Assembly (NCBI RefSeq): GCF_044324875.1
Contig: NZ_CP172185.1
Reading direction: 5' to 3' (one strand)
Origin: Escherichia coli
GTDB taxonomy: Bacteria > Pseudomonadota > Gammaproteobacteria > Enterobacterales > Enterobacteriaceae
DNA length: 64,000 bases
Both the position numbers and the translations under genes were made by a program. Every line of letters starts with the position of its first letter. The stretch's first letter is position 1. Below are positions 19,530-38,656 of the stretch, one piece after another. Under the pieces are notes generated by a model, which saw only the letters and a list, made by a program, of their open reading frames with translations, made no database searches and had not been told where the DNA came from.

Positions 19530-20579
19530 TTATGCGATGACGCTTTGAATCACATAGTTAATCGCACCACCACCAACAATCAGCCAGGCAAACAGTACCA
19601 GTGCCATCAGCAGAGGTTTCGCCCCGGCTTTTTTCAGTGCGCTGACGTGAGTGGTCAGACCCAGCGCCGCCATCGCCATTGCCAGCAGGAAGGTATCCAG
19701 CGTTACCAGCATGTTCACCACGCTCTGCGGTAACAGGTGGAACGAGTTAAAGATGGCAACTACGATGAACAAGATGGCAAACCACGGAATAGTGATTTTG
19801 CTTTTCTCGCCGCTGTTCGCCCCAGACAGCTGTTTAACACGCGCCGCCAGCAGGATGAGGAACGGAGCCAGCATCATCACGCGCAGCATTTTGGAAATAA
19901 CTGCTGCGTTTTCCGCATCCGGGCTGATGGCATGACCTGCCGCCACCACCTGCGCCACTTCGTGCACAGTAGAACCAATGTAGATACCGAAAGTTTCCGG
20001 ACTAAACCATTGAGACATCAGCGGATATATCGCCGGGTAGAGGAAAATCGCGACGGTCCCGAAGATAACAACGGTTGCAACAGCCACGGTTACTTTACTG
20101 GCTTCCGCTTTCACTACCGGCTCAGTCGCCAGTACCGCGGCAGCACCACAAATACTGCTACCGGCACCGATCAACCAGCTGGTGTGCTTATCCAGACCAA
20201 ACACTTTCTGCCCCAGGAAGCAAGCCAGCAGGAAGGTACTGGACAGCGTCAACACGTCAATGATGATCCCACTGATACCGACATCGGCAATTTGCGAGAA
20301 CGTCAGACGGAAGCCATAAAGAATGATACCCAGACGTAATAAATATTGCTTGGCAAACAGCACACCACCGTCACAGCTTTTCCAGATGTGCGGATAGATG
20401 GTGTTGCCTAAAACCATCCCCAACAAGATTGCGAGGGTGAGGGCACTAAACCCGGCACCCGCAACCGCGGGAATGGAACCACCCCACAGGGCGACCCCGG
20501 TGATAACTGCACTCAGGGCTAACCCCGGAATAAAATGCCACAGTGTACGATGTTGTTTCTGTAAGGTGATATTCGTCAT
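19530..20579 (-). CDS. yeiH: UPF0324-family inner membrane protein
   Basis: 349 aa multi-TM. Confidence 0.85.
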
Positions 20580-20677: not shown

Positions 20678-21559
20678 ATGCACATCACCCTCCGGCAGTT
20701 GGAAGTTTTTGCAGAAGTATTGAAAAGTGGATCAACCACCCAGGCGTCGGTGATGCTGGCGTTGTCGCAATCAGCAGTGAGCGCAGCCTTGACCGACCTG
20801 GAAGGGCAGCTTGGCGTGCAACTGTTTGATCGCGTGGGGAAAAGACTGGTAGTTAATGAACACGGGCGACTGCTCTATCCGCGTGCGTTGGCACTGCTTG
20901 AACAGGCGATCGAAATCGAACAACTGTTTCGCGAAGACAACGGTGCGATTCGTATCTATGCCAGTAGTACCATCGGTAACTACATTCTGCCTGCAGTCAT
21001 TGCCCGTTATCGCCATGATTATCCGCAGTTGCCGATTGAACTTAGCGTTGGGAACAGCCAGGACGTGATGCAAGCGGTGCTGGATTTCCGCGTTGATATT
21101 GGCTTTATTGAAGGACCGTGCCACAGCACTGAAATCATTTCTGAACCGTGGCTGGAAGACGAGCTGGTGGTTTTCGCCGCGCCGACTTCGCCATTGGCTC
21201 GTGGTCCGGTCACCTTAGAACAGCTGGCCGCTGCGCCGTGGATCCTGCGTGAACGCGGCTCCGGCACGCGGGAGATTGTCGATTATCTGTTGCTGTCACA
21301 TTTACCGAAGTTTGAGATGGCGATGGAATTAGGTAACTCCGAGGCAATCAAACATGCGGTGCGTCATGGGTTGGGAATTAGTTGCCTGTCGCGGCGGGTG
21401 ATTGAAGATCAATTGCAGGCAGGCACATTAAGTGAAGTTGCGGTCCCTCTGCCGCGCCTGATGCGTACGTTGTGGCGTATACATCATCGGCAAAAACACC
21501 TTTCCAACGCGCTACGGCGCTTTCTGGACTATTGCGATCCCGCGAATGTACCGCGTTAA
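20678..21559 (+). CDS. yeiE: LysR-type transcriptional regulator
   Basis: 293 aa, N-terminal HTH; divergent from yeiH. Confidence 0.88.
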
Positions 21560-21763: not shown

Positions 21764-23233
21764 ATGGGTTCCGAAACTAAAACTACAGAAGCGCCGGGCT
21801 TACGCCGTGAATTAAAGGCGCGTCACCTGACGATGATTGCCATTGGCGGTTCCATCGGTACAGGTCTTTTTGTTGCCTCTGGCGCAACGATTTCTCAGGC
21901 AGGTCCGGGCGGGGCATTGCTCTCGTATATGTTGATTGGCCTGATGGTTTACTTCCTGATGACCAGTCTCGGTGAACTGGCTGCATATATGCCGGTTTCC
22001 GGTTCGTTTGCCACTTATGGTCAGAACTATGTTGAAGAAGGCTTTGGCTTCGCGCTGGGCTGGAACTACTGGTACAACTGGGCGGTGACTATCGCCGTTG
22101 ACCTGGTTGCAGCTCAGCTGGTCATGAGCTGGTGGTTCCCGGATACACCGGGCTGGATCTGGAGTGCGCTGTTCCTCGGCGTTATCTTCCTGCTGAACTA
22201 CATCTCAGTTCGTGGCTTTGGTGAAGCGGAATACTGGTTCTCACTGATCAAAGTCACGACAGTTATTGTCTTTATCATCGTTGGCGTGCTGATGATTATC
22301 GGTATCTTCAAAGGCGCGCAGCCTGCGGGCTGGAGCAACTGGACAATCGGCGAAGCGCCGTTTGCTGGTGGTTTTGCGGCGATGATCGGCGTAGCTATGA
22401 TTGTCGGCTTCTCTTTCCAGGGAACCGAGCTGATCGGTATTGCTGCAGGCGAGTCCGAAGATCCGGCGAAAAACATTCCACGCGCGGTACGTCAGGTGTT
22501 CTGGCGAATCCTGTTGTTCTATGTGTTCGCGATCCTGATTATCAGCCTGATTATTCCGTACACCGATCCGAGCCTGCTGCGTAACGATGTTAAAGACATC
22601 AGCGTTAGTCCGTTCACCCTGGTGTTCCAGCACGCGGGTCTGCTCTCTGCGGCGGCGGTGATGAACGCAGTTATTCTGACGGCGGTGCTGTCAGCGGGTA
22701 ACTCCGGTATGTATGCGTCTACTCGTATGCTGTACACCCTGGCGTGTGACGGTAAAGCGCCGCGCATTTTCGCTAAACTGTCGCGTGGTGGCGTGCCGCG
22801 TAATGCGCTGTATGCGACGACGGTGATTGCCGGTCTGTGCTTCCTGACCTCCATGTTTGGCAACCAGACGGTATACCTGTGGCTGCTGAACACCTCCGGG
22901 ATGACCGGTTTTATCGCCTGGCTGGGGATTGCCATTAGCCACTATCGCTTCCGTCGCGGTTACGTATTGCAGGGACACGACATTAACGATCTGCCGTACC
23001 GTTCAGGTTTCTTCCCACTGGGGCCGATCTTCGCATTCATTCTGTGTCTGATTATCACTTTGGGCCAGAACTACGAAGCGTTCCTGAAAGATACCATTGA
23101 CTGGGGCGGCGTAGCGGCAACGTATATTGGTATCCCGCTGTTCCTGATTATTTGGTTCGGCTACAAGCTGATTAAAGGAACTCACTTCGTACGCTACAGC
23201 GAAATGAAGTTCCCGCAGAACGATAAGAAATAA
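21764..23233 (+). CDS. lysP: Lysine-specific permease (APC family)
   Basis: 489 aa multi-TM amino acid permease. Confidence 0.93.
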   Translation: MGSETKTTEAPGLRRELKARHLTMIAIGGSIGTGLFVASGATISQAGPGGALLSYMLIGLMVYFLMTSLGELAAYMPVSGSFATYGQNYVEEGFGFALGWNYWYNWAVTIAVDLVAAQLVMSWWFPDTPGWIWSALFLGVIFLLNYISVRGFGEAEYWFSLIKVTTVIVFIIVGVLMIIGIFKGAQPAGWSNWTIGEAPFAGGFAAMIGVAMIVGFSFQGTELIGIAAGESEDPAKNIPRAVRQVFWRILLFYVFAILIISLIIPYTDPSLLRNDVKDISVSPFTLVFQHAGLLSAAAVMNAVILTAVLSAGNSGMYASTRMLYTLACDGKAPRIFAKLSRGGVPRNALYATTVIAGLCFLTSMFGNQTVYLWLLNTSGMTGFIAWLGIAISHYRFRRGYVLQGHDINDLPYRSGFFPLGPIFAFILCLIITLGQNYEAFLKDTIDWGGVAATYIGIPLFLIIWFGYKLIKGTHFVRYSEMKFPQNDKK

Positions 23234-23254
23234 GTTTCCTCCCTTCCTTGCTAA

Positions 23255-23279
23255 GCCCTCTCAACCGAGAGGGCTTTTT
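23255..23279 (+). terminator. Rho-independent terminator of lysP
   Basis: gccctctc-aacc-gagagggc followed by ttttt. Confidence 0.7.
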
Positions 23280-23330
23280 CAATTCCATTTCCCTGACAAA
23301 TCATGCGGATATAAAATTTAACATTTGGAT

Positions 23331-23360
23331 TGATAATTGTTATCGTTTGCATTATCGTTA
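23331..23360. promoter_or_regulatory. Fur box(es) in cirA promoter
   Basis: tgataattgttatcgtttgcattatcgtta resembles GATAATGATAATCATTATC. Confidence 0.6.
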
Positions 23361-23524
23361 CGCCGCAATCAAAAAAGGCTGACAAATCAGAGGCTGTTCC
23401 GGCTTTCTGGGATGATCACCTGCATACAAATAAGTCCACCGCGATGCTGCCGTACGCAAGGGGACGTAAAGAAGATGTGAGCGATACCCATTTTATTTTC
23501 GTAGTTACCTCATGGAGATATGGA

Positions 23525-25504
23525 ATGTTTAGGTTGAACCCTTTCGTACGGGTCGGGCTGTGTTTGTCCGCTATTTCTTGTGCATGGCCTGTGTTAGCGG
23601 TCGATGATGATAGCGAAACGATGGTTGTCACTGCATCTTCCGTTGAACAAAACCTTAAAGATGCACCTGCCAGTATCAGCGTCATTACCCAGGAAGACCT
23701 GCAGCGAAAACCGGTACAGAATCTGAAGGATGTCCTCAAAGAAGTGCCTGGCGTACAACTGACGAACGAAGGGGATAACCGTAAGGGCGTTAGTATTCGT
23801 GGTCTGGACAGCAGCTACACCCTGATTCTCGTCGACGGTAAACGCGTTAACTCCCGCAATGCCGTCTTCCGCCACAATGATTTCGATCTGAACTGGATCC
23901 CGGTCGATTCCATCGAACGTATTGAAGTGGTTCGTGGCCCGATGTCGTCGCTGTACGGCTCCGATGCGCTCGGCGGTGTAGTGAATATCATCACCAAAAA
24001 AATCGGTCAGAAATGGTCGGGTACCGTTACCGTCGATACCACCATTCAGGAACATCGCGATCGCGGTGATACCTATAACGGTCAGTTCTTTACCAGTGGA
24101 CCATTAATTGATGGTGTGCTGGGAATGAAAGCTTACGGCAGCCTGGCAAAACGTGAAAAGGATGACCCGCAAAACTCAACGACCACCGATACCGGAGAAA
24201 CGCCGCGTATTGAAGGATTCTCCAGCCGCGACGGCAATGTCGAATTTGCCTGGACACCGAATCAAAATCACGATTTTACTGCCGGATACGGTTTCGACCG
24301 TCAGGATCGTGATTCCGACTCGCTGGACAAAAACCGTCTGGAACGCCAGAACTACTCCGTCAGCCATAATGGGCGTTGGGATTACGGCACCAGCGAACTG
24401 AAATACTACGGTGAGAAAGTCGAGAACAAAAACCCTGGCAACAGCAGCCCGATAACTTCCGAAAGCAATACGGTCGACGGTAAATACACGTTGCCGCTGA
24501 CGGCGATTAATCAGTTTCTCACGGTTGGCGGTGAATGGCGTCACGACAAACTTAGTGATGCGGTGAACCTGACCGGGGGAACCAGCTCCAAAACGTCTGC
24601 CAGCCAGTACGCGCTATTTGTGGAAGATGAATGGCGGATCTTCGAGCCGCTGGCGCTGACGACCGGCGTACGTATGGACGATCATGAAACCTACGGTGAA
24701 CACTGGAGTCCGCGTGCCTACCTGGTTTATAACGCCACCGACACCGTAACGGTAAAAGGGGGCTGGGCGACGGCATTTAAAGCACCTTCTCTGTTGCAAC
24801 TTAGCCCTGACTGGACGAGCAATTCTTGCCGTGGCGCATGTAAGATTGTGGGTAGCCCGGATCTGAAACCAGAAACCAGCGAAAGTTGGGAACTGGGGCT
24901 TTACTACATGGGCGAAGACGGCTGGCTGGAAGGGGTGGAGTCCAGCGTTACCGTTTTTCGTAACGATGTGAAAGATCGTATCAGCATCAGCCGTACGTCT
25001 GACGTCAACGCTGCACCGGGCTACCAAAACTTTGTTGGTTTTACAGCGAACGGTGTGCCGGTATTCAGCTACTACAACGTTAACAAAGCACGTATTCAGG
25101 GCGTGGAAACCGAGCTGAAAATTCCGTTCAACGATGAATGGAAACTGTCACTCAACTACACCTACAACGATGGTCGTGATGTCAGCAACGGCGAAAATAA
25201 ACCTTTATCCGATCTGCCGTTCCATACCGCTAACGGTACGCTGGACTGGAAACCGCTGGCGCTGGAAGACTGGTCATTCTATGTTTCTGGTCACTATACC
25301 GGGCAGAAACGCGCCGACAGCGCGACGGCTAAAACACCGGGCGGTTATACCATCTGGAATACCGGTGCGGCCTGGCAGGTGACTAAAGACGTCAAACTGC
25401 GCGCAGGCGTGCTGAACCTTGGCGACAAGGATCTCAGTCGTGACGATTACAGCTATAACGAAGACGGACGTCGTTACTTTATGGCAGTGGATTATCGCTT
25501 CTGA
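23525..25504 (+). CDS. cirA: TonB-dependent colicin I / catecholate siderophore receptor
   Basis: Start at [25 protein letters not shown] (signal peptide), TonB box ETMVVTAS, C-terminal ...YRF; 659 aa as deduced here. Confidence 0.88.
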
Positions 25505-25534: not shown

Positions 25535-26404
<870 letters not shown>

Positions 26405-26628
26405 TCATCATACCGTTTATTCAATGTGCTGTGAGTAACTTTCACTTCCGTATTTGCATAACGATGTTTTAACATCTGCTGATGAAAGGCAGCGGCAATT
26501 ACAATAATTATCGCTGTGAATACTGGATTATGTGCGCCGCCTCACGCACAATAATCAGGCTGTAAATCAGCTTAATAACTTTGCCCCCACGCAGGGCGGA
26601 GGCGTCACACCTGCAGGAGAAATCATAA

Positions 26629-27297
26629 ATGCCATCACTCAGTAAAGAAGCGGCCCTGGTTCATGAAGCGTTAGTTGCGCGAGGACTGGAAACACCGCTG
26701 CGCCCGCCCGTGCATGAAATGGATAACGAAACGCGCAAAAGCCTTATTGCTGGTCATATGACCGAAATCATGCAGCTGCTGAATCTCGACCTGGCTGATG
26801 ACAGTTTGATGGAAACGCCGCATCGCATCGCTAAAATGTATGTCGATGAAATTTTCTCCGGTCTGGATTACGCCAATTTCCCGAAAATCACCCTCATTGA
26901 AAACAAAATGAAGGTCGATGAAATGGTCACCGTGCGCGATATCACCCTGACCAGCACCTGTGAACACCATTTTGTTACCATTGATGGCAAAGCGACGGTG
27001 GCTTATATCCCGAAAGATTCGGTGATCGGTCTGTCAAAAATTAACCGCATCGTGCAGTTCTTTGCCCAGCGTCCGCAGGTGCAGGAACGTCTGACCCAGC
27101 AAATTCTCATTGCGCTACAAACGCTGCTGGGCACCAATAACGTGGCTGTCTCTATCGACGCGGTGCATTACTGCGTGAAAGCGCGTGGCATCCGCGACGC
27201 AACCAGTGCCACAACAACGACCTCTCTTGGTGGATTGTTCAAATCCAGTCAGAATACGCGCCACGAATTTCTGCGCGCTGTGCGTCATCACAACTGA
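26629..27297 (+). CDS. folE: GTP cyclohydrolase I
   Basis: 222 aa [24 protein letters not shown]... Confidence 0.93.
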
Positions 27298-29653: not shown

Positions 29654-29684
29654 CCGCTTTCAATCTGTGAGTGATTTCACAGTA
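29648..29684. promoter_or_regulatory. mgl promoter: Gal operator followed by CRP site
   Basis: atgtaaccgctttcaat then perfect CRP-type palindrome ctgtgagtgatttcacag (TGTGA-N6-TCACA). Confidence 0.6.
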
Positions 29685-36264: not shown

Positions 36265-36308
36265 GTGATCTTCCTTAATGCTATGAGTAATTAAGGCGAA
36301 CGCTAAAT

Positions 36309-36511
36309 ATACTCGTCATACTTCAAGTTGCATGTGCTGCGTCTGCGGGTTATTCGGCCCATCCATGGGCCTCACCCCTTATGGGGCCGCTGCAGGCAGC
36401 GTTCAAATCCGCTCCATGCGGATTTGTCGCTCACCCCAGTCACTTACTTATGTAAGCTCCTGGGGACTCACTCACTTGTCGCCTTCCTGCAACTTGAATT
36501 ATTTAGAGTAT
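36309..36511. repeat. ERIC/IRU element, long variant with terminal inverted repeats
   Basis: Ends atactcgtcatacttcaagttgca and tgcaacttgaattatttagagtat are inverted repeats; internal gctcaccccagtcacttacttatgtaagctcctgggga matches the ERIC core. Confidence 0.7.
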
Positions 36512-36660
36512 AAATATTGCGTGCTGATATTAAGGCTATGCGCGTGGGGAAATTTAAACTGTGAAAGGATTCACAAATAGCTGCGGTTCAGAATGTTATA
36601 TCCGCAGCTTATTGAGTGAAGTAATAATTATTCTCAATAATTAACAGAAAAGAGAAAATA

Positions 36661-38656
<1,996 letters not shown>

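Follow-up and report, generated by a model that had tools for sequence, protein, structure and literature searches.

Introduction

CirA imports iron-catecholates and is the published receptor for colicins Ia/Ib and microcin V. Its gene, cirA (cir), belongs to the classical Fur-repressed siderophore uptake genes, and ChIP has shown Fur upstream of it (PMC4676285). According to published work, it is a member of the Fur-1 iModulon, the iron chelator DTPA induces both its promoter and the protein, and cirA-lacZ has been assayed in a fur deletion background because of Fur repression. In Escherichia coli K-12, cirA is transcribed from two promoters, p1 and p2, which give untranslated leaders of 173 and 160 nt (PMC2588501). 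The Fur DNase footprint on the cir promoter (Griggs & Konisky 1989, as relayed in PMC2189734) corresponds to NC_000913.2 2244957–2244999. Three information-theory Fur walkers were described for cir, the strongest of which has 20.7 bits and is centred at −189 from the start codon (PMC2189734). This is unusually far compared with fhuA (−45), entC (−36) and ryhB (−15) (PMC2189734), and is due to the long leader. The arrangement of cirA resembles that of fepA-fes, fhuA, fiu and fecA, where overlapping Fur sites 6 bp apart lie over the promoter hexamers and expression is derepressed under iron limitation.

The leader also has described counterparts. Like cirA, shiA (activated by RyhB and repressed by Hfq) and ompT, fepA and fecA (repressed by OmrA/B) have a long 5′ UTR which serves as a platform for Hfq-dependent sRNAs, and short seed pairings are found at or near the ribosome-binding site. 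Hfq represses translation of cirA, and RyhB activates it by antagonising Hfq (Salvail et al. 2013, as reported in the papers citing it); Esr41 of EHEC has been published to repress via cirA mRNA. cirA differs from the other genes in that activation by RyhB and repression by OmrA/B and Esr41 come together on one leader. The literature on these sRNAs and on iron and Fur was drawn from PMC2588501, PMC5286369, PMC4676285, PMC5861419 and PMC4666370.

We analysed a 64,000-nt stretch of E. coli DNA (the window), which contains the same locus as that described for K-12 with p1, p2 and the Fur operator (Griggs & Konisky 1989, via PMC2189734 and PMC2588501). In comparison with K-12, the leader in the window is 2 nt shorter and carries 2 substitutions, and CirA is without four loop residues. 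Our own analysis supplied the identity to the K-12 operator that had been footprinted, the layout of the promoters, the motif scores, the conservation between species and the evidence that the reading frame is not conserved. Fur binding, transcription starts, iron/Fur dependence and sRNA effects are taken from the literature and refer to the K-12 sequence, not to the strain of the window.

Results

The cirA locus

The window locus is part of the E. coli chromosome with the gene order yeiE-lysP-cirA-yeiG-folE. Positions 23200–23600 were matched by 5425 of the 5426 complete E. coli genomes, many of them at 100%, and the matching region is annotated as lysP and cirA. In K-12, too, cirA is flanked by lysP and yeiG. 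The following features define the locus:

yeiH: minus strand, ends at 20579
yeiE: 20678–21559
lysP: 21764–23233
lysP intrinsic terminator: 23253–23281, plus strand, 10-bp stem with a T-run (hairpin 23253–23276), found by terminator scan
cirA coding sequence: 23525–25504, plus strand, 659 aa, from RefSeq annotation and the NF007478 match
yeiG: minus strand, 25535–26371
folE: 26629–27297

The lysP terminator is the upstream boundary of the cirA control region. Between 23200 and 23428 every base is identical to K-12, including both promoters and the whole footprint; the first difference from K-12 after the end of lysP falls well within the cirA leader. Over the 25-kb stretch 20000–44999, the best complete E. 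coli genome reached only 99.1%, as compared with 100% for the cirA control region in many strains. This ceiling indicates that the exact strain is apparently absent from the 5426 complete genomes, or that the segment is mosaic.

The Fur operator and the tandem promoters

The element upstream of cirA is almost certainly the Fur operator of the gene, overlapping p1 and p2 and followed by a long untranslated leader, as judged from its sequence and the published K-12 data. Its parts are:

Fur operator: 23319–23361, no strand assigned, 43 bp, same sequence as the K-12 cir DNase-I footprint
cirA promoter p1: 23318–23346, plus strand, −35 TTAACA at 23318–23323, 17-nt spacer, TG-extended −10 TATCGT at 23341–23346
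cirA promoter p2: 23330–23358, plus strand, −35 TTGATA at 23330–23335, 17-nt spacer, −10 TATCGT at 23353–23358
cirA 5′ untranslated leader: 23354–23524, plus strand, 171 nt from p1 and 158 nt from p2

The sequence-only reading had reported a Fur box at 23331–23360. This element lies wholly within the published K-12 footprint, the sequence of which was located exactly at 23319–23361 (coordinates as relayed in PMC2189734). Positions 23330–23362 read TTGATAATTGTTATCGTTTGCATTATCGTTACG and hold the imperfect palindrome GATAAT-T-GTTATC; its middle T, at 23338, is the centre of the site. The spacing given for the box holds as well, as the cirA ATG at 23525 is 165 nt past 23360.

Scored against the 19-bp classical Fur consensus, the cirA site is weak (14/19), and across the 64-kb window no site with at most three mismatches to this consensus was found. 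Five sites in the window reach at least 14/19, so this score is not distinctive. One of them, at 15/19, is a chance match inside lysP; a motif match alone would thus not prove a Fur site. Another site with the same score as the cirA site, GGCAATTACAATAATTATC at 26494–26512, is found in the intergenic region between the divergent genes yeiG and folE. After the 19-mer counts had failed to single out the cirA site, we adopted two other scores. Against the 7-1-7 pattern tGATAATnATTATCa, the Fur core TGATAATTGTTATCG (box 23331–23345, centre 23338) matches at 12/14, the joint best in the window. The array of five GATAAT/ATTATC hexamers at 23332–23362 scores 23/30, which is the window maximum and was reached by one of 100 dinucleotide shuffles of the whole window. 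The site therefore agrees with the Fur recognition model by its 7-1-7 core and its hexamer array, with a weak 19-mer.

Were the palindrome only a fortuitous resemblance to a Fur site in AT-rich promoter DNA, iron would have to act on cirA through another site or by an indirect route. The score of only 14/19 and the comparable 19-mers in coding DNA of the window would fit such a coincidence. However, Fur was footprinted with DNase on this very sequence in K-12, no hexamer array of the window scores higher and shuffles seldom equal it, and the core of the site is invariant in about a dozen genera while the flanks diverge (see below), which leaves a chance match with a negligible probability.

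Published leader lengths place the transcription starts at 23354 (p1) and 23367 (p2), with the −10 hexamers 7 and 8 nt 5′ of the respective starts. An independent consensus promoter scan returned exactly two overlapping sigma-70-like candidates, at the positions predicted from the published leaders. Both −10 hexamers belong to a 12-nt direct repeat (TATCGTTTGCAT and TATCGTTACGCC). The hexamers of p1 and p2 and the p1 start are all located inside 23318–23361, and the p2 start is 6 nt past the end of the footprint. Thus, the Fur box overlaps both promoters and is not upstream of them, and p1 transcription begins inside the box. With both −35 elements, both −10 elements and the p1 start under the footprint, the arrangement is a classic case of promoter occlusion.

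Conservation of the operator

CirA orthologues were gathered from 80 species. In 64 of these, the 330 nt upstream of cirA contain a 7-1-7 box with at least 11/14 matches, at 94–215 nt from the start codon. As background, nine positions in the 64,000-nt window reach at least 11/14, from which about 3.6 loci would be expected by chance. The site is thus conserved upstream of cirA orthologues. An alignment of 18 sequences was built from about a dozen genera, including Escherichia, Salmonella, Kluyvera, Pseudocitrobacter, a Citrobacter-like member, Pluralibacter, Klebsiella, Raoultella, Silvania, Leclercia and Siccibacter, together with two unplaced Enterobacteriaceae isolates. All 18 sequences agree in ATTGATAA and over much of the TTATC/TTTATC hexamers, and the flanks are scrambled. 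Within E. coli, the 49 nt from 23319 to 23367, which comprise the footprint and the transcription starts, are identical in 4816 of 5373 matching complete genomes. The claim of a Fur box upstream of cirA is therefore borne out by identity to the footprinted K-12 operator, by retention of the site in 64 of 80 species and by published Fur repression.

The box centre is 165–215 nt from the ATG in 39 distinct sequences. In Leclercia, some Enterobacter, Atlantibacter and Citrobacter freundii (loci L014, L017, L023–L025, L041, L043, L044, L059 and others), the distance is 94–130 nt, as compared with approximately 170–215 nt elsewhere. The leader has therefore gained or lost some of its sequence in the course of evolution.

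Most genera other than Escherichia have a consensus −35 element, TTGACA, about 20 nt 5′ of the Fur box. Escherichia has CGGATA at this position (window 23308–23313; columns 24–29 of alignment A2). TTGACA may represent an extra upstream promoter in other genera which Escherichia has lost.

The untranslated leader

The long 5′ leader proposed in the sequence-only reading was corroborated: the leaders of 173 and 160 nt published for K-12 (PMC2588501) correspond to 171 and 158 nt here, the difference being caused by two 1-nt deletions. Besides these, there are two substitutions relative to K-12, and none of the changes falls in the operator. Three elements are distinguished within the leader:

CAYCUGCA and A-rich block: 23417–23434, plus strand, conserved in the A2 and A3 alignments, carries one of the 1-nt deletions
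GAUGUGAGCGAU block: 23474–23485, plus strand, complementary to RyhB nt ~40–52, putative RyhB site
Translation-initiation region: 23506–23517, plus strand, UACCUCAUGG at −19 to −10 (23506–23515) and Shine-Dalgarno sequence GGAG at 23514–23517

[quoted passage not shown] Within 35 leaders, CTCATGGAG is invariant (35/35) and the flanking ACCTCATGGAGA block is at least 90% conserved, so that the OmrA/B pairing site is both present and conserved. Further conserved islands are a U-tract and the start-codon block ACCUCAUGGAGA..GGAAUG with the invariant core CUCAUGGAG. The CAYCUGCA/A-rich block is a putative Hfq binding region of the ARN type, as suggested by the published Hfq repression of cirA.

The complementarity to RyhB at 23474–23485 consists of 12 contiguous pairs, two of them G-U, and its duplex energy in the local search is not significant against shuffles. 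[quoted passage not shown] From this complementarity, we predict that RyhB pairs at this position of the cirA leader. When RyhB and OmrA/B were paired at full length with the leader in RNAduplex, the resulting duplexes were unrealistic and interrupted by many loops. A seed-restricted search returned a plausible RyhB site, not above shuffles, and missed the proven short OmrA/B site. For both sRNAs, the predicted duplex energies were no better than those of shuffled controls. Since the RyhB site was not significant and the proven OmrA/B site was missed, thermodynamic prediction is uninformative here.

TGTGA is also the half-site core of CRP, and an iron-independent effect of cAMP-CRP on cir is known from older literature. 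The TGTGAGC block might accordingly be read as a CRP half-site for cAMP-CRP control of cirA and not as an element at the RNA level. Such a role is extremely improbable: no TGTGA-N6-TCACA with at most two mismatches occurs within 23200–23525, the block is located at about +110 to +130 of the transcript, and its complementarity to RyhB runs to 12 contiguous pairs.

The preservation of leader length in many genera (centre-to-ATG distance 165–215 nt in 39 distinct sequences) and the presence of conserved islands could also be accounted for by a leader that regulates in cis on its own, as a riboswitch, attenuator or thermosensor does, and is not an sRNA/Hfq target. No structured leader of this kind was detected. 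An Rfam scan of 23150–23650 revealed no family in the leader at E ≤ 1, with sub-threshold hits confined to the lysP hairpin; the fold energy of the single sequence was no better than that of shuffles (z-score +0.66); and RNAalifold on 35 leaders yielded neither a consensus structure nor covariation. Further, the box-to-ATG distance is only 94–130 nt in some lineages, and the conserved islands are located where OmrA/B have been shown to pair and where the leader is complementary to RyhB. We consider a cis-acting RNA very unlikely. The cirA leader is a documented regulatory platform for sRNAs and Hfq and not a passive spacer.

The two-deletion leader allele

One of the 1-nt deletions relative to K-12 is at 23429–23430, in the conserved A-tract, and the other at 23486–23487, at the 3′ edge of the RyhB-complementary block. 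The exact 91-nt leader segment with both deletions is present in 1317 of 5423 complete E. coli genomes (~24%). There is a small chance that the allele retunes Hfq repression and RyhB activation of CirA, which could shift susceptibility to colicins Ia/Ib between lineages. Susceptibility to siderophore-conjugated antibiotics may depend on CirA and could shift likewise with the leader allele.

The reading frame upstream of the start codon

The list of open reading frames contains a TTG-initiated frame at 23330–25504 of 724 aa, which extends cirA at its 5′ end:

Spurious in-frame extension: 23330–23524, plus strand, 65 codons with TTG start, makes cirA a 724-codon ORF

It is only the two 1-nt leader deletions that keep the frame open over 70 codons upstream of the ATG; K-12 and other Escherichia have a stop at 15 codons, and other species have 0–67. 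As the allele is common, naive ORF callers see the long frame in about a quarter of strains. Taken at face value, the open frame of 70 codons and the occurrence of the same leader allele in 1317 complete genomes might speak for a CirA protein with a 65-residue N-terminal extension, or for a regulatory upstream peptide encoded by the leader. We regard the probability of either as close to zero. The TTG at 23330 is 24 and 37 nt 5′ of the p1 and p2 starts, that is, upstream of both, and frame analysis found no Shine-Dalgarno sequence there. The length of the frame varies between species, and a profile search with the extension peptide gave no protein-family match. RefSeq (PGAP) annotates the ATG start in strains with identical upstream sequence. 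CirA matches the NCBIfam equivalog NF007478 over its full length from the annotated Met, with 1443.5 bits (cut-off 745) and residues 1–659 on profile positions 1–663, and the signal peptide begins at ATG 23525. The 724-codon ORF is an artefact of an open frame across leader and promoter, just as the sequence-only reading had supposed. For annotation, the true start is ATG 23525, and the 724-codon ORF should not be called.

CirA of the window is 99% identical to that of K-12. It has 659 aa as compared with 663 in K-12, the loop FETGANGRRIP being replaced by FT--ANG--VP (window ~25040–25065, codons ~506–512), and there are a few other substitutions, including G30S, E465D and I547L. The same 1980-nt cirA allele is annotated in NZ_CP062824.1. 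Loop variation in CirA, a colicin and phage receptor, could affect recognition by toxins or phages.

Other Fur- and CRP-like sites in the window

A perfect CRP core, TGTGAGTGATTTCACA, is found at 29666–29681 in the galS-mglB intergenic region and is presumably the known CRP site of the mglB promoter. The yeiS-preT intergenic region contains another perfect CRP core, TGTGAAAGGATTCACA, at 36560–36575. In the same region, the Fur-like sequence TAATAATTATTCTCA at 36622–36636 scores 12/14 on the 7-1-7 pattern and ties with the cirA box; a hexamer array at 36654–36684 adjoins it. For K-12, a Fur cluster of 19.6 bits was predicted at −163 of yeiT (preT) (PMC2189734). In the window, a dispersed intergenic repeat, which by eye has an ERIC-type appearance, occupies ~36290–36520 between the preT start (36264) and the Fur- and CRP-like sites, and shifts the Fur-like site of preT from −163 in K-12 to about −365. 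E. coli genomes carry a median of five copies of the repeat; only 599 genomes have one that spans 80% or more of the 231 nt found here.

Discussion

Under iron sufficiency, Fe2+-Fur dimers would occupy the overlapping site cluster over approximately 43 bp (23319–23361) and shut RNA polymerase out of p1 and p2, so that cirA is repressed. When iron is scarce, Fur would be released and transcription would begin at 23354 (p1) or 23367 (p2), giving mRNA with a leader of 171 or 158 nt ahead of ATG 23525. A second layer of control would act in the leader, where Hfq would block translation and Fur-controlled RyhB would lift the block. OmrA/B, and in EHEC also Esr41, would pair at the ribosome-binding region and cause repression.

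The published K-12 data provide what was proposed as a check on the Fur box and its leader: the footprint, as relayed in PMC2189734, maps to 23319–23361, and the leader lengths (PMC2588501) place the transcription starts at 23354 and 23367. The Fur operator of cir is thus confirmed as an already known, textbook site, and the observation is correct but ordinary. Control of cirA by iron and Fur in K-12 has been established since 1989 and was refined in 2008–2016; the window contributes no more than another strain with an intact operator. The one further reading, of low probability, is that the leader deletions alter post-transcriptional control. For the organism, iron and Fur, through their control of cirA, determine how much iron is taken up and how susceptible the cell is to colicins Ia/Ib and microcin V.
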